Positions 14,531 to 25,880 of a stretch of DNA of 26,083 nucleotides are shown piece by piece. The DNA is from Candidatus Bathyarchaeota archaeon (GTDB lineage Archaea; Thermoproteota; Bathyarchaeia; TCS64), in assembly GCA_030602935.1 (NCBI GenBank), contig JAUVYU010000001.1, forward strand, positions 1 through 26,083, read 5' to 3'. Both the position numbers and the translations under genes were made by a program. The first letter of the stretch is position 1, and each line of letters begins with the position of its first letter. The notes beneath the pieces were generated by a model. It did not search any database and was not told where the DNA came from. It saw only the letters and a list, made by a program, of their open reading frames with translations.

Positions 14531-16591
14531 ATGCTGATCCGAGAAGTCATACTTGAGAACTTCATGTCCTACGAGTACGCTCGCGTCCCCCTGAAGGAGG
14601 GCGTCAACGTGGTCATAGGGCCCAACGGATCAGGCAAGTCCAGCTTCCTCGTGGGCATCTGCGTCGCCCTCGGGGACACCTACACCGAGCGGTCGAAGAA
14701 GCTCAGCGACCTCATTCGGTGGGGGCAGGACCGCGCGAGGGTAACATTACTCTTGGATAACTCGGTCAGGGAGAATGGTCGGAGATCCATCCCTCGCTTC
14801 GACAGCGACTTCATCAGCCTCTCGCGGACCCTGAGGCGGGACGGCAAGTACGGGTTCGAGATCAACCAGAGGAGCGCCCAGAAGTACGAGGTCATGGATA
14901 TCCTCAGGGACCTGGGCTTCGACCCCAATAACATGCTCATCATCATGCATCAGAACATGCCTTCAAAGTTCGCTGCCCTCAGCCCCCAGGAGAAGCTGGT
15001 CAACCTGGAGGAGTCGGTGGGCTTCGAGACCTACAGGAGGGACATCCTCGAGGCGAAGAACAAGCTGAGCAGCATCCTCAGCGAGCAGGAGAGCCTCAAC
15101 GACCTCCTGGCTAGGGCTCAGGAGACCCTGGGCTACTGGCGGGAGCAGAACGACCGCCTCCAAGAGAAGAGGCAGCACCGGACGCGGTCCCTGTTCCTCC
15201 AACGGGAGATGGCTTGGAGCAGGGTAGCCGACCTGGAGAACAGCCTCAGCAGGCTCGAACAGGAGCTGAACAAGGCGGACTCCGACCTCAAAGAGGCCGA
15301 GGCCGAGATGGAGCAGCGCAGCCAGCAGGTCATCGACACCCAGGCCTTGCTGAGGAAGAATCGGGATAACTCTGTCCTCCTCGTCGAGAAACGGGTTGAG
15401 CTTGAGAGGACTGTGGGCATCTGCGAATATACCATCGGCAACTCGAAAGACAGGTTGACTCAGCTCGACAGTATGACCTCGACGTTCCAAGAGTCGAAGA
15501 GGCGCTTCGAGATCAGCGCCGAGGCCCTCAAGGAGCGGCTCAAGGACGGGCCAACCACCCTGGACGCTTACTTTAACCTTGTGAACGAGTTCGAGGAGAC
15601 CCAGACAGAGGCCTACGACTCCTGGCAGGGCGACCTCTCGAAGCAGCGCTCCGGGATAGAGACCTCCGTCGACTCCCTGAGCAAGAAGCTGAGCGAGGCG
15701 GACGCGGGCTTGAAGGATGTAATGGAGGAGATCGCGTTAACCAACGCCCGCATCGACGAGGCCAACGACAGGTACATCGACGGGCGCATCAGCATGGCCC
15801 TCCTCACGGATCGCAGGGGACGGCTCAAGAGTAGGATAGACGAGCTCAAGGCGGATATCGACAGGCTGAGGCGGGACCTCAACGACGCCGAGGCGGAGGC
15901 CCTGATCAAGGGTTCAAGGGTTGAGACGGGTCGCTCGTCGGATGACATCTTGGGGGAGATAAGGAAGGTCAGCGGGATACTATTGGGGTTGGCGAACGTC
16001 TCGGAGGACGCCGAGGCGATGTTCGAGTCATACTCCCAGACCTTCAAGGATCTCCAGGAGAAGGTTGAGCAGGTCAAGGAGAACCGTCGCAAGGTCATGG
16101 GCGAGATAGACGAGAGGACGAGGATGTGGGCCGAGGTGATGCGGGACCTCCTGGAGGAGGTGAACAGCCGCTACCAGAGCCTTCTCTTCATGCTCCAGGC
16201 CACCGGCGAGGTGAGGCTCATCAACACCCACGACATCGAGGCCGCCGGCGTCGAGATCTGGGTCGGCTTCAAGGGCGCTGAGCCGAGCAGGCTCGACCCC
16301 TACACCCACAGCGGCGGGGAGCGGAGCACGTCGGTGATGGCGTTCCTCCTCTCGCTGCAGCAGAACGTCCTCTCCCCCTTCAGGGCGGTGGACGAGTTCG
16401 ACCTCCACATGGACCCGAGGAACAAGGAGATCGTCTCAGAGTTCATTGTCAAGACCCTCGAAGACTCCAAAGGCCAGTACATGGCCATCACCCCAAGCCA
16501 GATCACCTTCAGGGGGCAGGACGTCCACGTCATCATGGTCCACAAGACCGAGGGAGTCTCCACGATCCGGATGGTAGAGGACATTGAGTGA
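14531..16591 (+). CDS. SMC-superfamily ATPase, short and Smc5/6-like
   Basis: Walker [10 protein letters not shown]-loop IIMHQN, long coiled coils, [15 protein letters not shown] neck-like motif, HSGGERS signature, [13 protein letters not shown] Walker B/D-loop, QYMAITP. Confidence 0.92.
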
Positions 16592-17375
16592 CAGGGAGGG
16601 CAGGGCCCAGCTGGAGGGCGTGATAGCCATCTGTCGCTCCGTCTCCGAAGGAGCCCTCGACCCCTTCGCGGTGGACGTAGACTATGTCCTCTCCGTGATA
16701 AGGAGGCACTATCCCCAGGTGGCGTCCCTGGAGGAGTTCTGCCTCGACGCGTCAGCTATCAAGGAGCTGTCCAACGTGCTGGAGAAGCAGAACGATTGGA
16801 TCCAGCACCAGTCGACGACGCTCTACAAGGACCCCTTCATGCTCCAGCAGCAGCTCATGATGATGGACGTCAGCGCTGTCGCTGAGGCCTTCCTCAAGTC
16901 CTGGCACCCCGTCGTCGAGCTCGAGCAGATCTCAGTTAAAACACTTGGCGGAGCCCTCGGGTACTGGAGCGACCTCCTACCCATGGAGGAGAGGTGGGCG
17001 GAGGACCAAGTCAGCCCCGTCGACGCAGGCTCCGCAACGTGGCTGGAGGCCCAGGAGCTTGGGCTGATACCCCTGGAGGGCTTCTCGGAGACCATGGCAT
17101 CCTACTGGGCGGAGATGAAGGAAGTCTCAGAGGGGCAGGGGCGCATCCCCTACTGGGAATGGATCGGCAGGGAGACCTACCGGGAGACCCTGGTGAGGGC
17201 TTACATCACGTGCTACCTGGTGGGCTACGGATACGCCATCGTGGAGATGGACAGGTTCAGCGACAACGTCTACCTCACGCCCCTAGAGGAGCAGTCGGGC
17301 GCCGAGACGAACAAGATGATATCGTTGCCCGTAATGGTAGACTACGAGGAGTGGAGAAGATGGCGAGAAGGGTAA
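16584..17375 (+). CDS. Kleisin-like (ScpA-like) protein
   Basis: N-terminal [12 protein letters not shown] resembles the ScpA IDPWxIDI motif. C-terminal [30 protein letters not shown] resembles the kleisin winged helix. TTG start overlaps the SMC stop. Confidence 0.7.
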
Positions 17376-17938
17376 GACGCTCAGATACAAGATACTCCAG
17401 GAAGGTCAAGGACGCAGTCCACCTCCTGTTCTTCAAGCACCACAGGCTCCCCGGCGTAAGGGGCTGGGAGCTACGGCAGGAGCTGGGAGCCGAGTGGCTC
17501 GACGTCATCGACGTCCTCGACAAGCAACTTAAACTCCTCGACCTCAAGGTCACGCGCGCCCTAGACGACCCCGACATCATCGAGCCCACGAGGGCTCAAC
17601 TAGCGGACGCCAGGTTCTACATCACCATGAGGGGCTCCGTCGACCAGAAGACCGCCAAGACGATAGGCTGGAGGATAGACGACATCGCCGGGCTGGCCGT
17701 GACAATCGCGTTCCTCATCTCAAGGCAGGGGAAGACCCCCCGCGTCGACGTCGAGAAGGCTCTCGCCGAGAAGCTTCCAGGCTGGCGGACGAAGATGAAC
17801 GTCGACAGGTACATAGCGGAGGGCTACCTCGGCGAGGACGAGAGCGGCAACCTCTACATCGACTGGAGGAGCAGGGCGGAGGTTGACCAGAAGCAGCTCG
17901 TGGACCTCGTCCTGGCCTTCGGACGCAAGCCCGCTTAG
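17360..17938 (+). CDS. KITE-like (ScpB/Nse1/Nse3-MAGE-like) tandem winged-helix protein
   Basis: True start ATG 17360 overlaps the upstream stop. [16 protein letters not shown] helix and GYL...[12 protein letters not shown] wing resemble the second WH of KITE proteins. Confidence 0.68.
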
Positions 17939-20112
17939 CCCTCGAAGAGGAGGGCGCCCAGTAGCTCACGGAAGCTCCACTTGGAGCCCCCGGGAACAAG
18001 AGGGACAGCGTATACGTTCTCAGATAATGAGGGCCCCGCATCGGAGGGATGAACCACTACAACTAGGTTGTAGACATTCCTCAGCCTCTGAAGCTCGTGG
18101 ATACTTGAATCAAGCAGCGAGAAAGCTGTATCGAACAGAGGCCTGAAAGCGCACCTCATTGTTCTCCCGATCGAGTCTACAACCTCGAGATCGAGAAGCC
18201 TGCCTAACCCTGAGACATTCTGAGAGGTTGTCAATCTGACCGTGAACTCGCCATCACTCAACGTAATCCTCAGGTCATCCAGGTCAACAAACCCTCGGTC
18301 CCCGTCGAGGAGAAGAGTCGATTCTTCGTCTATCTGGAAGCCGATCCTCATGAATGACCTGACGATCTCGACCCCACACCACCTCTCATAGAGAAGTGAT
18401 GACCCGCCCATCTCGGGCAGCGAAGCCCGGATGTTGTATAGGGGTGGAGGCGTGTTCACGTCGTAGCTCTTCTTCATAGCGTAGAACCGGCCATAGTTGG
18501 GATGGGACGTGAGGACCTCCGTCTCGAGGGGCGGCTGCTGTGTGATCTCGACCTCATCTAGGAAGACAGCGGTACCTAGGTACCCCAGTATCTTACCCCT
18601 CAGCTCCTCGATCCCGGCGATGGTCTCCCGGTTTTTCGTCAGCACTTTCGCCCATCTAGCCGTCGCTGAGCTCCCTGAGAACTTTATCGCCCTGTTCAGG
18701 AGCGCCTCGATATCGGTGTTCACCTCTGAGACGGCGCCCAGCTGGGAGACCAGTCCCTGCAGGTGGGCCTTCAGCACCTTGTTCTCGAACGTGTCGTAGT
18801 TCCTTACGACGCCACTCTCGATGACGTTGATGGGGATCTCCTTGAGCAGCTCCCTAACCTCGGAGAACTCGCCATCAGTCTCTCCTTTTCGGACTAACAG
18901 CTCGTCAAGGATGGTCTTAGAGAGCTCCGGCTTGAGGCTATCCAACGAGCCCAGGGCCTTCCTCTCTGTCCTCTCGACCATCGCGTAATCGGGGTCCTCT
19001 GCTATCAGGTTGAGCACCGGTCCTAGCTCCATCCAGTGGTCCCTGATATGGTTGAGCCAGTCGGCGCTGCGCGCGCTGACCTCACCTTTGAGGACCGTGT
19101 AGACCATGTGGACGTACATGTCGGCGACCTCCTCGGCCATTATCCTTTGAAGTCTTTCATTGGATGAAGAATACCCGGCCTCCTTTCTCTCCTCTTTAAC
19201 TTGAGAACGTTCAGAGGGCGCTTCCCCCCTTCTATCTCCCTCCCTCCTGAGCAGGCCGATGAGCTGTTCCAGGGGGTCCCCGTTCTTCTCTAGGGCCTCT
19301 TCCGCTTCACGAGGAGTCCTGTCCTTCAGGTAGTCGGTCAGTGCGTCCATGAGCTCAGTTGTAGGTGACTTCTCGCTCTCAGGGGTCTGTGTCTGGCTCC
19401 TGATGTAGGCAGCCAGCGCGCCCACCAGCTCGTTGAGGGATGAGATGATGCCCTCTCTCGGCACATCTCCTGCCTCCTTCTTGAGCATTGTGACGAGGAG
19501 CTCGCACAGCTCGTCGAAGGCCGTCTTCTGGGGGCGGACCGCCTCGTACTGTGGCTGAGGTATCGCAGGTGGAGTAGGCCTGTACTGGAAGACGAGTCCC
19601 CTGCTCAACATGCGATCGATGATGCGGTCTATGAACTCGTCATCAGAGACGTCAACAGTTATCACGCGCCTCTCTGCCGGGAGTCCGGGGGCTGTGACCC
19701 TCATCCCTTCAACGGGAGGCGCCGCGACCTTGTCCGCTCCTGGCAGGACCGGCGGCCTCGCCTCAGGTATGATGACCTCCATCTCAGGAGGCTTCTCAAC
19801 CGTCGGAGTGGGCACGGTCACCTCGGCTTCCTCCTGCAGTAACAGCTCGTCGTCAGCAGCGTAGTACTGCTCCAGGATCTCGGCGCTGTGATCCCACCTC
19901 TTGTAGGAGTTGAGGCTGAGGATGATCTCGGCCTTGTCGACGTTGGCCTCGTCGGCGTCGTTGACGATGGCCATCTTGTCCTTGATCCGCCAGGCTGACT
20001 CGGCTGTGAAGAGGTTGAGTTCGTTGGGGAAGTACTTCAGGTCGATGAGGGAGTCTCCCCTGGTGACGTAGATGTACAGGTTCCCGCCGATCCTCGAATA
20101 GTATTTACCCAA
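17935..20112 (-). CDS. Multidomain DUF2357/McrC-like protein with a degenerate PD-(D/E)XK-like C-terminus
   Basis: RNYDTFENKVLK, TEVLTSHPNYGRFY and LLYERWC match DUF2357-type motifs. Unknown N-terminal domain and Pro/Glu-rich linker. TTG start abuts the upstream TAG. Confidence 0.72.
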   Translation of the reverse strand: MGKYYSRIGGNLYIYVTRGDSLIDLKYFPNELNLFTAESAWRIKDKMAIVNDADEANVDKAEIILSLNSYKRWDHSAEILEQYYAADDELLLQEEAEVTVPTPTVEKPPEMEVIIPEARPPVLPGADKVAAPPVEGMRVTAPGLPAERRVITVDVSDDEFIDRIIDRMLSRGLVFQYRPTPPAIPQPQYEAVRPQKTAFDELCELLVTMLKKEAGDVPREGIISSLNELVGALAAYIRSQTQTPESEKSPTTELMDALTDYLKDRTPREAEEALEKNGDPLEQLIGLLRREGDRRGEAPSERSQVKEERKEAGYSSSNERLQRIMAEEVADMYVHMVYTVLKGEVSARSADWLNHIRDHWMELGPVLNLIAEDPDYAMVERTERKALGSLDSLKPELSKTILDELLVRKGETDGEFSEVRELLKEIPINVIESGVVRNYDTFENKVLKAHLQGLVSQLGAVSEVNTDIEALLNRAIKFSGSSATARWAKVLTKNRETIAGIEELRGKILGYLGTAVFLDEVEITQQPPLETEVLTSHPNYGRFYAMKKSYDVNTPPPLYNIRASLPEMGGSSLLYERWCGVEIVRSFMRIGFQIDEESTLLLDGDRGFVDLDDLRITLSDGEFTVRLTTSQNVSGLGRLLDLEVVDSIGRTMRCAFRPLFDTAFSLLDSSIHELQRLRNVYNLVVVVHPSDAGPSLSENVYAVPLVPGGSKWSFRELLGALLFEG

Positions 20113-20775
20113 CTACTTTTCCCTCCCTAACTCTCCGTTTATTATGTCGTCAAATATCCCCCTCTTGCTGACGGTCGGGGCCGTGTCTTCCTCGTCCTTC
20201 TCCGTTGGCTTCCTCAGAAGGAGGTTCTCGAAGGCGTAGTTCCAGAAGACGCCCATCCAGAGTAGGGTGAACAGGGTGCCCAGGTAGTCATGGAAGATGA
20301 TGGCCTGGAGGTACCCCGAGTTGTGGGCTAGAAGGGTTGGGATTAAGATTCTGAGTATGTTAATCAGGAACGTCCCCTCCAGCCCGATGAGCACCGTCAT
20401 GATCTTGCTCCTCCTGGTGTAGGGCCCCTGGAGCCCCGTCAGGAGAGTGAAGGCTAGGAGCACGAAGCTCTGCCAGCCGATGCAGTTCCAATTAATGTAT
20501 ATCCTGAGGGGTATCCAGGCCCCGGTCAGGTACAGGTTCGATCCGTTGATGGACGCAGGCACACCGAGTGTCTTCAGTAGGACTGCCACGATCCTCACGA
20601 TGAAGGGTGCAATGAAGCCTTGGATCAGGGCGACGAGCTGGAAGCTCTCCACCACCTTCGTCAGGAACTCGTTGAACGTCGTAACGAAAGGAAGGATTAT
20701 GAACGTTACAGAGGCGACTATGATTATCCTCTGGAAGACCTTCCCCTGGGCGCGCTGAACTATCCTATCACTCAT
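20113..20775 (-). CDS. Exosortase/archaeosortase family protein (minimal 4-TM core)
   Basis: INWNCIGWQSF (Cys), INILRI (Arg), IFHDYLG (His), four hydrophobic segments. Confidence 0.88.
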   Translation of the reverse strand: MSDRIVQRAQGKVFQRIIIVASVTFIILPFVTTFNEFLTKVVESFQLVALIQGFIAPFIVRIVAVLLKTLGVPASINGSNLYLTGAWIPLRIYINWNCIGWQSFVLLAFTLLTGLQGPYTRRSKIMTVLIGLEGTFLINILRILIPTLLAHNSGYLQAIIFHDYLGTLFTLLWMGVFWNYAFENLLLRKPTEKDEEDTAPTVSKRGIFDDIINGELGREK

Positions 20776-22171
20776 CCTGCTCTCTCCTCCGTTTCAGGGT
20801 CGCTCTCAGGTGACCGGAGATGTAGCTCGTTGTTGCGAAGAAGAGCGATACCTGAATCATTTTTTTCAGGTTCTCAGGGACGACCATCCCCGGAAGGTCG
20901 ATGTTCGAATGTCTCTCCGAGCTGTCGTATTCGAGTACGTACGTCATCTCCAGGTCGTCGTAGATGCTGATGCTCAGGCGGAGGGTGTGTCCGCTGTCGA
21001 ATACTTGCTCGTTGATGTAGCTCCCCGTGAACTGGAACTGCCTCATCTGCTTCCTGATCCTGATGTCGAAGTCCTCAGAGTTGACCAGGGTCGAACCGCC
21101 TGTCTCATCCACGTTGTACAGCTCGAAGCGTATCTGGGTATCGTAATTGTTCAGCTTCTCCGAGGTCATGAACTTCAGCCAGACTGTATAGATGATAGAG
21201 CCCTGCAGGCTGTAGTCGACACCAAGTGGACCATACAGATAGAAGTTCCACATCTCGTAGAACCCCGAGGAGCTGCTAGCATGGATGGCATCGCTGTAAG
21301 CCGATGGATTGAGCTGGGTGAACTCGGGCATCGTCATTATCCGGCTCGTTGAGATCGTGTTGACGGTTACAGGAGAAGTCAGGTGTTCGAAGCTCAGTAT
21401 CGTCTGGTCGACCCCGGTGGCCCTGACCGAAATGATGGCGACTCCGTTCAGGAAGGTCGCGAGGAGGATAATCACCATCGTCGCCAAGCCCATCGCCTTC
21501 TTGCCATAGATGAAGTCAGGCAGGAGCCCGATGAGGTCTAACCCTTTGAACGATGTCCTGATCCTCTCAAGCAGGGGCTTCTCGTCGTCCTCCGCCTTGT
21601 AGTCGAGGATGAAGTTCTGGGATAGATACCAGAAGCCGCTCAGCCAGATGAAGGTCAGGACCGTCGAGAAGTAGTCGTGGAAGGTTATGGCTGGCCCGTA
21701 CCCGCCGTTCAACAGGAGGAGGCACGTGGAGGTGACCCGGATGATATTCAGGATGACCACGCCCTCGATGCCGAGGACGACGCACTTAATCCTGCTTCCG
21801 AGGGTGTACTTTCCCTGGAGGATAGTGACAAGAGATATCGCTAGGAGTATGAAGCTCTGCCACCCGACGCAGTTCCAGACGATGTCCACCTCGTAGGGCA
21901 GACCACCGGTCATCATGTATATGCTAGATCCGCTTATGACCGTCTCTATCTTGAATACCTCCTCCAACACGGTGCCAGCGAGGCGAACCATGACCGGAAC
22001 CGCGTACTTCTCCAGTACCTTGTAGAGCCCTGAACCGAGGGCTAACTGGGTGAGGAGATCGTTGATGGTGGTAATGAGGGGTAGGATCGAAAGCCCCACC
22101 AGGGTGAACCAGATGAAGCCCTCGTACCGGGCTCCGAACTTTAGGAGGAACTCCTTCACTCGGTTAAGCAT
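20768..22171 (-). CDS. Exosortase/archaeosortase fused to a C-terminal ectodomain and sorting-signal-like tail
   Basis: IVWNCVGWQSF, LNIIRV, TFHDYF; then a TM, a ~175-aa beta-rich domain, PGMVVPE, a weakly hydrophobic segment and KRRR. Confidence 0.88.
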   Translation of the reverse strand: MLNRVKEFLLKFGARYEGFIWFTLVGLSILPLITTINDLLTQLALGSGLYKVLEKYAVPVMVRLAGTVLEEVFKIETVISGSSIYMMTGGLPYEVDIVWNCVGWQSFILLAISLVTILQGKYTLGSRIKCVVLGIEGVVILNIIRVTSTCLLLLNGGYGPAITFHDYFSTVLTFIWLSGFWYLSQNFILDYKAEDDEKPLLERIRTSFKGLDLIGLLPDFIYGKKAMGLATMVIILLATFLNGVAIISVRATGVDQTILSFEHLTSPVTVNTISTSRIMTMPEFTQLNPSAYSDAIHASSSSGFYEMWNFYLYGPLGVDYSLQGSIIYTVWLKFMTSEKLNNYDTQIRFELYNVDETGGSTLVNSEDFDIRIRKQMRQFQFTGSYINEQVFDSGHTLRLSISIYDDLEMTYVLEYDSSERHSNIDLPGMVVPENLKKMIQVSLFFATTSYISGHLRATLKRRREQDE

Positions 22172-24545
22172 CGTCTTTCCTCCTTCGAAGCTTCATTACG
22201 ATCCCGGGGATCAAGGGGGCTAGTATGAGGAGGGGTAGCAACGACTCTGGCATCACCATCCCCGGGAAATCCACTCGGGAGTGCTTCTCCGTGGAGTCGT
22301 AGTCGAGGTAGAAGGTCCAGCCGTCCTCCCCCTTGAACAGTATCTCCACGATGATGCTGTGTCCCTCCCTGAACTTTATCGACTTGATGACCTCGGCGGG
22401 GAGCATCAGCGCCTCCTCCGGGGACTCGTCGTCGACCCCCACGTCCTTGAACTGGTATGAGAACTTGGAGTCAGTCTCACCGTCCTCATCCAAGTCCGTG
22501 ACGAGGACCTTCATGTCGACCTCATGCTCCTTGTCCGAGTGCAGGAACAGGTAGAGGTTCAGGCTCCCCTTCATCTGGTAGTCTTCCTCTAGGGGCCCGA
22601 ACAGGTAGAATTGCCACCCCTTCTGCCAGTCTGTGCCGGAGAGGGTGTAGCTGTCCGTGCGCGCGCGCGTCCCAAGGGAGATGTAGTCCGGATGGGTGAG
22701 GATCATGTTCGTGTATTTTCCGTTGATGGTGACGCCAGAGGCGACGTACTCGAGGTTCAGGGCGGTGATTGGGCTATCGTCCACCGGCACCGACATGGCG
22801 GCTGCGGTGACCCAGACTATCAAAGTCGACATGAGCAGCAGGAACAGGAGCGCCATCGCTGACGGCCTCCGCCTCCTCTGCCTATCCTCCTCCTCCGTCC
22901 TCTGAGCCCTGGGGGCCTCCCTTCGCGGGAGTATCCAGCTGAAGAGCCTCCTGACCCTTATCTGGAGGATCCTGTCGGTTACGCTGCCCGTTTTGAGGGT
23001 CCTGACCCAGCCTCCCTCGTCTTTCTCGAGGAGGCCCTTCACTGCTGCGTAGGCCTGGAAGGGCGTGAGGACGTAGCTGAGGACTATGAACGAGAATATA
23101 CCCGAGTAGTCCTCCTTCGCGGTCTGCTCCAGGAAGAGCCCTGACAGACTCATGAGGGGGAGGGCAAAGAGGTTGCTCAGGATGAGGCACCACCCGAAGG
23201 TGGCCGTCCAGAAGAAGGGGTGCTCCCCCAGGAACTCGGCCGCCACCCAGAAGAATGTCCCGACGAGGAAGAAGAAGGACTGCAGATAGTATGGAGCGAA
23301 GTAGACGAACTCAAGCTTCTCCCGACCAGTCATGTTGTGGGACTTGAGGACGTCCCAGAAGTATTTCTTGACGGCGAAGGTGTGCCCTTCAGCCCAGCGC
23401 ATCCTCTGGTGGGCGAGAGCCCTGATGGTCGTGGGTATCTCGGCCGGGGCCTGGATGAGGGGGGTGTAGAGGACCTTGTAGCCCGCCAGGTACATCCTGA
23501 TAGTGAGGTCCCAGTCCTCGGTGATGCTGTGAGTCCAGCCCAGGTTCTTCAGTATCTCGGCCCTGATCATGAAGACGCTGCCCGTGATCATCTTCATGGA
23601 GCCGAAGAACTCCTGGGCGACCCGCTCGATCATGTAGCCCCCGCTGAACTCGGCCCTGATCCCCTTCGTTATCCAGTTCTCGTTCTTGTTGAGGTGGTGG
23701 AGCTGGTATCCCTGGACGACGCCTATCTTTCGACGCTCGAACCAGTCGTCGACCCTGTCCAGAAGCTCCTCGCCGTTCTCGTTCCCGCCGTTTTTACCGT
23801 TCTGACCGTTCTCGTAATGCCTGAGTACATCATCGGCGAACCTGTGGCCGTTCCCGTTTGTCATCTCCCCGTGCCCATTGTTCCTGTTGCCGTCCTGCCC
23901 CTCGAAGTACCATAAGAAGCGCCTCAGGATGTCGGGGGGCGGGATAAAGTCCGCGTCGAAGACCACGGCGTATTTGGCCTTGGGATTCATGTAGTTGGTG
24001 GCCTTGCTGAGAGCACCGCCCTTGAACCCCGACCTTTCGTTCCTGTGAATGAACTTGACAGTCGGTCCGTCGGTGTTGAGGTTCAGCTCCTTCATTATCT
24101 CTATGGTCTCGTCCCTGGAGTCATCCGCTATGATGATCTCATAGTTCTCGTAGTCGATGTCCGAGCAGGCCTGTATCACACGGCGGGCGACGTTCTTTTC
24201 GTTGTAGAAGGGGAGCTGGATCGAGATGAAAGGCTCATCAATCTTCCTACCGTTGTCAAACCCATCGTTATGGGCAGATCCGTTGTTGTTCTGCCCTCTC
24301 AGGCTCGCGATGTAGTTGAGGCCCCCGTTCTGGATGGACTTGGTGCCGTTGGTCCCGTCTGTGCCGTTGCCGTTGCTGGCCCTGCCGAAGAATAGGGCGA
24401 TGAGGATCGCTAAGTAGTACTTGCAGGCGAAGAGGAAGAAGAAGAGGCCGAAAGCCAGGGCTACGTATGAGAACGTTTGGCCTATGACGGCTACAGCCTC
24501 TATCTTTTGTCCCTCCTTCGCCTTTTCTGTAGTGGTGATGCACAC
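22164..24545 (-). CDS. Processive GT2 (cellulose-synthase-like) glycosyltransferase fused to a C-terminal ectodomain and sorting signal
   Basis: QLPFYNE, DDS, KGGAL, FDADF, ITED, HQRMRW (QxxRW), TMs, WVRTLKTG; then a TM, a ~175-aa domain, PGMVMPES-LLPLLILAPLIPGIVM-KLRRRK. GTG start is tentative. Confidence 0.9.
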   Translation of the reverse strand: MCITTTEKAKEGQKIEAVAVIGQTFSYVALAFGLFFFLFACKYYLAILIALFFGRASNGNGTDGTNGTKSIQNGGLNYIASLRGQNNNGSAHNDGFDNGRKIDEPFISIQLPFYNEKNVARRVIQACSDIDYENYEIIIADDSRDETIEIMKELNLNTDGPTVKFIHRNERSGFKGGALSKATNYMNPKAKYAVVFDADFIPPPDILRRFLWYFEGQDGNRNNGHGEMTNGNGHRFADDVLRHYENGQNGKNGGNENGEELLDRVDDWFERRKIGVVQGYQLHHLNKNENWITKGIRAEFSGGYMIERVAQEFFGSMKMITGSVFMIRAEILKNLGWTHSITEDWDLTIRMYLAGYKVLYTPLIQAPAEIPTTIRALAHQRMRWAEGHTFAVKKYFWDVLKSHNMTGREKLEFVYFAPYYLQSFFFLVGTFFWVAAEFLGEHPFFWTATFGWCLILSNLFALPLMSLSGLFLEQTAKEDYSGIFSFIVLSYVLTPFQAYAAVKGLLEKDEGGWVRTLKTGSVTDRILQIRVRRLFSWILPRREAPRAQRTEEEDRQRRRRPSAMALLFLLLMSTLIVWVTAAAMSVPVDDSPITALNLEYVASGVTINGKYTNMILTHPDYISLGTRARTDSYTLSGTDWQKGWQFYLFGPLEEDYQMKGSLNLYLFLHSDKEHEVDMKVLVTDLDEDGETDSKFSYQFKDVGVDDESPEEALMLPAEVIKSIKFREGHSIIVEILFKGEDGWTFYLDYDSTEKHSRVDFPGMVMPESLLPLLILAPLIPGIVMKLRRRKDDA

Positions 24546-24770: not shown

Positions 24771-25082
24771 ATGAGTGAAGAAGAGCCCGGCCTCGCGGAG
24801 CTGGAGACACGTTTCGTCCGGGGGTTTCTGGACGTAACCATAATGAAGCTGCTCCTCGAGGAGCCCTTCTGGGGCTACAAGATGATGGAGGTACTCAAGG
24901 ACAGGTACGGGGTCAAGGTGGGGCCCGCGGTGATCTACCCCCTCCTGGACTCCATGGAGGCAGATGGGCTAATCCTGGCCGAGACGGTCTACTCGGGCAA
25001 GAGGAAGCGCAAGGTGTACAAGGTGCTGCCTCAGGGCGAGGCTATGCTGAAGAACATGGACCGGATCCTGAAGAAGTTCTAG
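24771..25082 (+). CDS. PadR-family transcriptional regulator
   Basis: RGFLDVTIMKLL...WGYKMM...GPAVIYPLLDSMEADGLI...RKRKVYKV..QG. Confidence 0.92.
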   Translation: MSEEEPGLAELETRFVRGFLDVTIMKLLLEEPFWGYKMMEVLKDRYGVKVGPAVIYPLLDSMEADGLILAETVYSGKRKRKVYKVLPQGEAMLKNMDRILKKF

Positions 25083-25091
25083 CCCTGTGAA

Positions 25092-25880
25092 TCAACCAGT
25101 CAGTTCGAGCAGCCTGCGGGCGACCTCCCTGAGGGCCCATGTGAAGGGGTGGCTGGGGTTGTCGAGGGCGAAGAGCGAAACCCGTTGGGCCAGGAGGAGG
25201 TCGCAGTAGCAGGGGATGATGGCTATTAGTGGTTTTGAGAACTTGCCCCCGACCTCGCTGAGGAGGGTCTTCCTGCTCTCATCGGAGACGAACATGTGGG
25301 GTCGTGACTTGTTGACTAGGATGTAGGTCTGTTTCTCGAAGGGCTCGTAGAGGTCCTCGGCCATCCTCTCGACGCCCTCGATGTCAAGCTGGTCGAGGCT
25401 GGAGACTATTATGGTGATGTCTGCGCTGACGACGGCGTTCACCGAGGAGAACTGGACCCCCGGGCTCGTGTCGATGATGACCACGTCGACGCCCATCTTC
25501 TTGGCCAGCTCGTCCTTCATCTCCATGACCTTCCTCAGGGCCTTCATCTGCCACTTCCGGTCCTTCCGGGCGATCTCACGCATCGCCTCCATGTCTGGGT
25601 TGGCGAAGCCTACGAGGAGCTTTCCCTTGGTGCCGTAGTTGGAGGTCAGGTCGACCATCACCGTCTCCAGCTTGGCCTTCCCATCGAGGTAGTTGTTGAT
25701 CCAGTCCCTGACGCTGCTCTTAGCCTGGAATATTGTGAGCAGGCTGGGGGCCCTGAAGTCGAAGTCGAGGAGGGCGACGTTGTGCCCCTCGGAGGCGAGT
25801 AGCGCGCTGATGTTGCTTGCGATCAGGCTCTTCCCCGTGCCTCCACGACTCGAGTGGATTGAGAACATCTTCACCATCAT
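25092..25880 (-). CDS. MinD/ParA-family ATPase
   Basis: SIHSSRGGTGKS, LLDFDFRAPSL, IIDTSPG, ILVNK. AGGTGA Shine-Dalgarno just upstream. Confidence 0.92.
   Translation of the reverse strand: MMVKMFSIHSSRGGTGKSLIASNISALLASEGHNVALLDFDFRAPSLLTIFQAKSSVRDWINNYLDGKAKLETVMVDLTSNYGTKGKLLVGFANPDMEAMREIARKDRKWQMKALRKVMEMKDELAKKMGVDVVIIDTSPGVQFSSVNAVVSADITIIVSSLDQLDIEGVERMAEDLYEPFEKQTYILVNKSRPHMFVSDESRKTLLSEVGGKFSKPLIAIIPCYCDLLLAQRVSLFALDNPSHPFTWALREVARRLLELTG

Follow-up and report, generated by a model that had tools for sequence, protein, structure and literature searches.

Exosortases and archaeosortases are widespread, and biochemical proof of activity is available for very few of them; the link of these enzymes to exopolysaccharide production has, to our knowledge, never been explained mechanistically. 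The described systems that come closest to the locus presented here are XrtG/Firmicu-CTERM, PEP-CTERM/exosortase (XrtA/EpsH), ArtA/PGF-CTERM and, by its layout, the BcsA-BcsB cellulose synthase. The locus lies in a 26,083-nt stretch of DNA (the window; contig JAUVYU010000001.1, positions 1 to 26,083, contig C47 of this analysis) from a Bathyarchaeia metagenome-assembled genome (MAG; GCA_030602935.1; 1.26 Mb, 262 contigs, 59% complete), and encodes a processive family 2 glycosyltransferase (GT2) and an archaeosortase paralogue that end in the same ectodomain and C-terminal tail, followed by a short archaeosortase. The tail is probably an undescribed protein-sorting signal with the synthase itself as cargo, because it tracks one small, uncatalogued exosortase/archaeosortase subfamily in both archaea and bacteria.

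The nearest described system, XrtG/Firmicu-CTERM of Firmicutes, likewise combines a small (~190 aa) exosortase-family enzyme, a GT2 operon and essentially a single target with a tripartite signal; the composition of the XrtG operon, with its GT2s, has been described for L. plantarum (PMC12854382). The XrtG target is a separate protein, whereas the signal described here is carried by the GT2 synthase and by archaeosortase paralogues. The XrtG models also failed at this locus, the short archaeosortase (P0003) scoring 20.8 against the TIGR03110 cutoff of 102.75 and the GT2 (P0001) 23.3 against 363.95 for TIGR03111, with no Firmicu-CTERM match. The PEP-CTERM/exosortase system likewise has a V-P-E-containing motif that abuts a transmembrane (TM) helix, with an Arg-rich cluster behind it; its enzyme is also polytopic with Cys-Arg-His, and it too is linked genomically to exopolysaccharide synthesis. 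It differs in having many secreted bearers per genome, against one to three here, each an enzyme encoded in the locus itself; the present tail lacks the second Pro of PEP, and the enzyme is ~200 aa long with a weak match to PF09721 (36.6 bits for P0003, threshold 25.7). The ArtA/PGF-CTERM system of Haloferax volcanii is also archaeal, involves the same enzyme superfamily and has a motif that likewise begins with P-G, and an ArtA substrate of this organism reportedly carries an internal tripartite signal. Its signature is PGF, as opposed to PG[MI]V[VM]PE here, and no ArtA model was among the matches of the fused archaeosortase (P0002) or P0003. For ArtA, removal of the C-terminal helix coupled to lipid attachment has been shown experimentally (summarised in Haft, bioRxiv 10.1101/2023.06.07.544157). 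The BcsA-BcsB cellulose synthase also combines a processive GT2 with an extracytoplasmic beta-sandwich, similar to carbohydrate-binding modules (CBMs), on a single C-terminal TM anchor, but the analogy is one of layout only: the ectodomain described here has no sequence relation to BcsB, which is a separate protein with no exosortase association. No description of this tail, or of this tail/GT2/exosortase pairing, was found in the literature searched.

Four genes are arranged head to tail on the minus strand, in the order GT2, archaeosortase fusion, short archaeosortase and DUF2357-like gene. The ATG of the fusion gene overlaps the GT2 stop by 8 nt, the start of the short archaeosortase overlaps the stop of the fusion gene by 8 nt, and the DUF2357-like gene begins one base past the short archaeosortase stop. 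The first three genes and their parts are as follows.

22164..24545, minus strand: GT2 processive glycan synthase with a C-terminal tagged ectodomain, P0001, 793 aa (Pfam and motifs)
22791..22859, minus strand: internal TM helix of the GT2, aa 563-585, with RRRR before it and a nearly invariant Ser at its end, signal-anchor-like (translation, alignment)
22266..22790, minus strand: jelly-roll ectodomain, GT2 copy, aa 586-760 (BLASTP, AlphaFold2 (AF2) model)
22245..22265, minus strand: signature motif PGMVMPE of the GT2, aa 761-767 (module alignment, tail logo)
22167..22244, minus strand: GT2 tail, a 17-aa hydrophobic helix with the conserved Pro (aa 768-784) and KLRRRKDDA (aa 785-793) (translation)
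20768..22171, minus strand: archaeosortase paralogue with the second module copy, P0002, 467 aa (TIGR04178)
21587..22171, minus strand: catalytic membrane domain of the fusion, aa 1-195 (39% identity to the short paralogue, E 1e-44)
21428..21496, minus strand: TM helix before the second ectodomain, aa 226-248, with GKK before it and the invariant Ser248 at its end (translation, alignments)
20894..21427, minus strand: second jelly-roll ectodomain copy, aa 249-426 (BLASTP, alignments)
20873..20893, minus strand: signature motif PGMVVPE of the fusion, aa 427-433 (homologue alignment)
20771..20872, minus strand: degenerate fusion tail, a weakly hydrophobic segment and KRRREQDE (Kyte-Doolittle)
20113..20775, minus strand: short archaeosortase, P0003, 220 aa (TIGR04178, PF09721)

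The tail has the consensus P-x-[IV]-[VI]-[VM]-P-E, followed by a helix with a conserved Pro and a run of Arg and Lys. The initial annotation had described the GT2 motif as followed by a hydrophobic helix and KLRRRK in a tripartite layout, and the translation agrees, with a 17-residue hydrophobic stretch before KLRRRKDDA and a best Kyte-Doolittle 15-mer mean of 2.47. The motif had been written as PGMVxPE, which holds within this genome but not as the general core, which is broader (P-x-I-V-V-P-E). No spacer separates the motif from the helix, the arrangement reported for signals that are cleaved by sorting enzymes embedded in the membrane (Haft, bioRxiv 10.1101/2023.06.07.544157). On the evidence of the alignments, the tail is the most conserved part of the module. 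L426, P427, G428 and V430 were invariant and E433 was conserved in at least 90% of the 18 aligned fusion homologues, and motif, TM helix and basic tail were conserved in all of them (18/18); in an alignment of 21 modules, P190 and G191 were invariant and V193 and E196 were conserved in at least 90%. The PE pair was kept in 19/19 Bathyarchaeial GT2 orthologues, with a mean best 15-mer hydropathy of 2.36.

A tail logo was built from 62 distinct tails obtained in a stricter search, which required the P-E pair preceded by two aliphatic or small residues, plus a helix and basic residues. Positions left free by this search were nonetheless conserved (Pro at -6 in 55/62, Val at -2 in 50/62, Ala at +9 in 45/62 and Pro at +13 in 54/62), indicating that the tails are homologous and not just alike in composition. 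The tail, the sortase subfamily and the GT2 all lack a fitting curated model in NCBIfam and Pfam. For the tails, no CTERM model of either database matched those of the window at E<=10, and Pfam and NCBIfam were also negative for eight related tails; PEP-CTERM (PF07589/TIGR02595) matched neither the window tails nor the eight related tails at E<=10, and PGF-CTERM (PF18204) did not match the window tails, one bacterial tail reaching 14.1 bits against 18.8.

The association between tail and enzyme was examined in 79 loci from one-genome-per-species contigs, retrieved with patterns from both halves of the fusion and mostly matching the sortase half only. A tail-bearer was counted as adjacent when a same-strand open reading frame (ORF) ended -50 to +450 nt from the sortase domain and finished in [aliphatic]2-P/x-E, a helix and an Arg/Lys cluster. 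Such an ORF was present in 56 of the 75 loci with upstream sequence (17/19 in Bathyarchaeia and 39/56 in others), and tails of this kind occurred on just 82 of the 3491 ORFs of those loci. Lineages with the tail directly upstream of a small exosortase/archaeosortase include Bathyarchaeia, Chloroflexota, Patescibacteria, Dormibacterota and others. Among 151 Bathyarchaeia genomes, strong matches to the sortase subfamily were present in 11, the module with its tail was present in the same 11 plus one match cut by a contig end, and the two were adjacent in every genome in which they co-occurred. Co-occurrence and shared neighbourhood are the type of evidence behind the first proposals of accepted exosortase/archaeosortase-signal pairs (Haft, bioRxiv 10.1101/2023.06.07.544157). 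As far as computation goes, the earlier proposal of a new CTERM-like signal is upheld: the tail is conserved in homologues, ends the protein upstream of the same exosortase subfamily in several bacterial phyla and has no curated match.

The tail is confined in this genome to three proteins of two sortase loci, according to both a motif regular expression and a general tail detector. A many-substrate system in this genome was considered and rejected, no further tail-bearing proteins being present in the 59%-complete MAG. The tail-bearer is nearly always a processive GT2, and GT2 synthases made up 8 of the 9 bacterial tail-bearers tested. Bacterial tailed GT2s (L030, L015, L028, L059, L014) often have an N-terminal response-regulator receiver domain, and one also has MshEN and one RNA polymerase alpha-CTD repeats, which suggests signal-controlled polymer synthesis.

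The enzymes had been called sortases; P0002 (32.5 bits over aa 95-183) and P0003 (37.9 bits) both pass TIGR04178 (cutoff 23 bits), which places them in the exosortase/archaeosortase family and not in the sortase family, so that the earlier label is to be read as archaeosortase. Both remained below all named archaeosortase subfamily cutoffs (ArtC, ArtF, thaumarchaeosortase, pacearchaeosortase, XrtX/XrtY), the best being ArtF (29.5 against 150) and pacearchaeosortase (18.3 against 80), and eight tested relatives, comprising bacterial and other Bathyarchaeial short sortases, had the TIGR04178 signature only and reached no named subfamily. C101, R145 and H165 of P0002 were invariant among 18 aligned homologues, as were the WNCVGWQS and FHD motifs, and C98, R142 and H162 of P0003 were invariant among 18 archaeal and bacterial enzymes of both forms, short and fused. 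This genome has three archaeosortase genes, all with an intact Cys-Arg-His triad. The third of these is another archaeosortase-module fusion (contig C78, L001:2852-4252, 466 aa, 46% identical to P0002), which adjoins genes for replication factor C, has no GT2 in its vicinity and either is a dispersed paralogue or lies on a contig that a second strain contributed to the bin.

A search of a 5.8-billion-protein collection gave 23 full-length homologues of P0002, all metagenomic or from Bathyarchaeia. In a tree of 95 sortase domains, all fused forms made up one clade (100/96), and P0003 was placed in a separate Bathyarchaeial short-form clade (100/97), beside bacterial short enzymes. Relatives of the short enzyme, ~40% identical, occur in Chloroflexota, Patescibacteria, Dormibacterota, Eisenbacteria and others, and by sequence comparison the short archaeosortase is the orthologue of the small exosortases encoded downstream of tailed GT2 genes in bacteria. 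The sequence L020, labelled 'Patescibacteria', nests within the Bathyarchaeial clade, a probable binning error in a public MAG, and the sortases of L045, L066 and L077 (a 'Nitrosopolaris' MAG) are nearly identical to those of Chloroflexota or Dormibacterota, again probably through a binning error.

The fused architecture was found only in Bathyarchaeia among the 79 fetched loci, and the archaeosortase-module fusions are an elaboration of one Bathyarchaeia lineage. Some Bathyarchaeia have the GT2 and the short enzyme alone (L018, L019, L021, L025, L050), and others have the GT2, two fused paralogues and the short enzyme (L006, L007, L009). In further variants, a stand-alone protein of two tandem modules replaces the fused archaeosortase (L012:306-1538), or the GT2 itself carries two tandem modules (L050:6354-9296, 981 aa). 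Archaeosortases that carry a substrate-like domain of their own are an architecture for which no earlier description was found.

The presence of one ~175-aa ectodomain ending in PGMV(V/M)PE on both the GT2 and the second protein, as first proposed by eye, was corroborated by BLASTP (P0001:560-793 against P0002:200-467: 94.7 bits, 29% identity, 248 columns, E 5e-28). The aligned strings quoted for the two copies (WQFYLFGPLEEDYQMKGS / WNFYLYGPLGVDYSLQGS) and their ends, DFPGMVMPES / DLPGMVVPEN, were found in the translations, and the boundaries given were also correct, 22245 being the last base of the GT2 Glu767 codon and 20873 that of the fusion Glu433 codon. The shared region is larger than had been stated, since the TM helix before each ectodomain is also homologous. 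The homologous C-terminal region spans ~235 aa; it begins with basic residues and a helix of ~22 residues with a conserved Ser at its end, continues with the ~175-aa domain and (F/L)PGMV(M/V)PE, and closes with a hydrophobic segment and then a basic tail. The Ser that ends the helix (S14 of the 21-module alignment) is conserved in at least 90% of rows. Chance or low complexity as the source of the two copies is ruled out by the E value of 5e-28 and by the family-wide conservation.

The ectodomain matches no Pfam or NCBIfam family, in line with its first description as unrecognised. Searched against 1.84 billion representatives, a profile of the 21 modules recovered only 92 clusters at E<=1e-3, so the module family is rare. 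The suggested beta-sandwich is supported at fold level: the AF2 model of the ectodomain, built from a 21-row alignment, is an all-beta jelly-roll sandwich over model residues 22-190 (pLDDT 87.2, pTM 0.77) with CBM-like neighbours and neighbours resembling the C-terminal domain of CocE/PepX. The top Foldseek matches in the PDB were CocE/NonD hydrolases, cocaine esterase among them, matched by their C-terminal jelly-roll (E 2e-7, TM 0.57). In VIA, a search independent of Foldseek, CocE/PepX-type C-terminal jelly-rolls reached Z 14.8, 12.8, 12.2 and 10.9, and CBM15, CBM4, CBM29 and many other CBMs reached Z 7-8, a range that the tool calls common. The C-terminal jelly-roll of CocE/NonD and PepX, which has a galactose-binding-domain-like fold, is the best structural neighbour of the model, but sequence identity is 10-17%, the module has no hydrolase domain and occurs in another context, and likeness of fold does not establish function. 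A known Pfam domain was rejected as the identity of the ectodomain, there being no sequence match and only fold-level likeness to PepX_C/CocE-type jelly-rolls. In the full-length AF2 model of the fusion (mean pLDDT 63, pTM 0.42), the ectodomain showed the same beta-strand pattern as the GT2 copy, with pLDDT 80-93 over aa ~290-410.

P0001 has Pfam GT2 matches (PF13641, PF00535, PF13632) spanning aa 108-484, and its translation contains DxD (FDADF), TED (ITEDWD) and QxxRW (QRMRW) motifs; the fold, together with DxD, TED and Q(Q/R)xRW, identifies it as a processive membrane GT2 of the BcsA/PgaC/NodC/chitin-synthase type. It remained below the cutoff of every named NCBIfam equivalog, the top one being PgaC/IcaA (95 bits against 422), and none of the related tailed GT2s reached an NCBIfam equivalog. 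Asn/Gly-rich low-complexity insertions occur before its catalytic domain (~aa 55-100) and inside it (~aa 215-255), at approximately 24270-24400 and 23780-23900 of the minus strand.

The tail is likely the signal by which the adjacent archaeosortase recognises and cleaves its target, and the module would be the dedicated cargo of an uncatalogued small exosortase/archaeosortase subfamily. The jelly-roll ectodomain would lie outside the membrane, held between two TM helices at the outer face of the synthase, and its C-terminal end would act as a tripartite signal for sorting, of the same type as PEP-CTERM and PGF-CTERM. The tail would be recognised within the membrane by the short archaeosortase (20113-20775), perhaps also by the fused paralogue, and cut at or just after VPE, and the new C-terminus would, by analogy with ArtA, be transferred to a membrane lipid or another acceptor. 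The ectodomain would lose its second anchor in this way, and would be fully released if signal peptidase also cut the preceding signal-anchor-like helix; its probable role is to handle the growing glycan as it leaves the synthase. The relaxed tails of the fused copies may be cis-substrates, or homotypic docking partners for the GT2 ectodomain.

Several observations weigh against cleavage of the tail by the adjacent enzyme. Nineteen of the 75 loci, mostly from Patescibacteria and a few from Chloroflexota, have no immediately adjacent tail-bearer. The signal on the archaeosortase copy is degenerate, and so in general are the fused tails: PE was found in 6/18 (otherwise SE, DE or EE), and mean hydropathy was 1.89, compared with 2.36 in the GT2 orthologues. 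The P0002 tail is the least hydrophobic of the 18 fused tails (15-mer mean 1.18), although it still ends in KRRRE, and the archaeosortase-borne copy may be a poor or non-cleaved substrate. A polytopic membrane enzyme would also be an unusual cargo, one that stays membrane-bound through its other helices unless there is a second cut, and the full-length model of the fusion (tail pLDDT < 50) is too poor to reveal whether the tail docks at the active site. The canonical tails of the GT2s and the relaxed tails of the fusions point to the GT2 as the primary bearer.

A stronger form of the cleavage model is polyprotein release, in which signal peptidase I would cut after the conserved Ser and the archaeosortase would cut the tail, giving a free lipid- or glycan-anchored jelly-roll from both enzymes. 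In front of each ectodomain are a run of basic residues, a helix of ~22 residues and a nearly invariant Ser with a small or aliphatic residue at -3. Several bacterial relatives have two or three internal units of ectodomain, VPE or VPD, helix and basic residues; such repeats, each followed by a new signal-like helix, occur in P0051, P0052, P0057, P0058 and P0068, and in the strings of units in P0051, P0052 and P0058 each VPE-TM-basic segment is followed by a helix with an Ala-x-Ala-like end. These internal repeats indicate that the unit is modular. Stand-alone module proteins also occur, including one- or two-module proteins of Bathyarchaeia (P0029 and the two-module protein of L012) and P0045. 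Judged from their sequences, the repeats and stand-alone modules fit a processing signal able to act internally and keep the idea of a cleavable signal-anchor alive. The signal-peptidase site was, however, placed by eye, and signal-peptidase cuts inside polytopic proteins are rare, making complete release of this kind rather doubtful.

Alternatively, the ectodomain could be a permanent, BcsB-like part of the synthase that is never cleaved, guiding the glycan and anchored by its C-terminal helix, with the VPE-helix-basic segment docking the small exosortase-like protein as a structural partner or as an enzyme for some other substrate. The bearer is a polytopic synthase with DxD, TED and QxxRW motifs, the ectodomain is predicted to be a CBM-like jelly-roll, and fused tails tolerate the loss of the Pro of PE; the module is also present on the sortase paralogues, for which homotypic or helix-helix assembly is a better fit than self-destruction. 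Permanent anchoring is nonetheless unlikely in view of the invariance of Cys-Arg-His in short and fused enzymes despite their large divergence, which argues for catalysis, of the tripartite tail layout with the motif abutting the helix, exactly as in proven exosortase/archaeosortase substrates, and of the retention of PE by all the GT2 orthologues.

Cleavage could also be tied directly to the polymer. The archaeosortase might cut the VPE tail of the synthase ectodomain and transfer the ectodomain to lipid or to the nascent polysaccharide of the same enzyme, with the fused copies being self-processing or self-loading, a proposal that we regard as quite improbable. If true, a single coupled machine, conserved from Bathyarchaeia to Chloroflexota and CPR bacteria, would both export the polymer and anchor protein covalently to glycan (or lipid). 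Plain paralogy, with a domain duplicated between neighbours and an ordinary C-terminal anchor that has no link to sorting, draws on the frequency of domain exchange between neighbouring genes and of C-terminal TM-basic anchors (45 generic cases in this genome), but is hardly tenable given the conservation of motif positions outside the TM helix, a pairing with one sortase subfamily that spans domains of life and the restriction of the motif in this genome to sortase loci.

The last gene of the operon and the surroundings of the locus are also conserved in related genomes. The operon ends as follows.

17935..20112, minus strand: DUF2357-like protein, 725 aa, last operon gene (PF09823 at its threshold)

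In 11 of the 12 Bathyarchaeial loci that were compared, a homologue of this protein (25-85% identity) is encoded 3' of the short archaeosortase, and the twelfth (L010) stops short of that position; the protein may be a fourth component of the system, and has no predicted link to sorting. Upstream of the GT2, at 24771-25880, are a PadR-like gene on the plus strand and a MinD/ParA-like ATPase gene on the minus strand, of which the ATPase gene is kept at the same position in 12/12 of the compared loci and the PadR-like gene in 4/12. A convergent SMC/ScpA/ScpB-like trio (14531-17938) recurs in most of the 12 loci. Elsewhere in the genome, two ORFs (G000:C147:1102-4758 and G000:C168:3049-3669) end in IPGFP, a hydrophobic helix and basic residues, resembling PGF-CTERM; an ArtA-like gene to pair with these two tails was not found in the 59%-complete assembly.

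The locus offers one enzyme with one or two predicted substrates, in which the substrate would be a polysaccharide synthase encoded directly upstream, a minimal and co-expressible pair that could show directly what exosortases cut and what the product is attached to. It also adds an uncurated probable sorting signal and a sortase subfamily, whose members are today annotated only as 'exosortase/archaeosortase family protein' and 'glycosyltransferase'. The system occurs in major uncultured lineages, namely Bathyarchaeia, Chloroflexota, Patescibacteria and Dormibacterota, the cell envelopes of which are poorly known.

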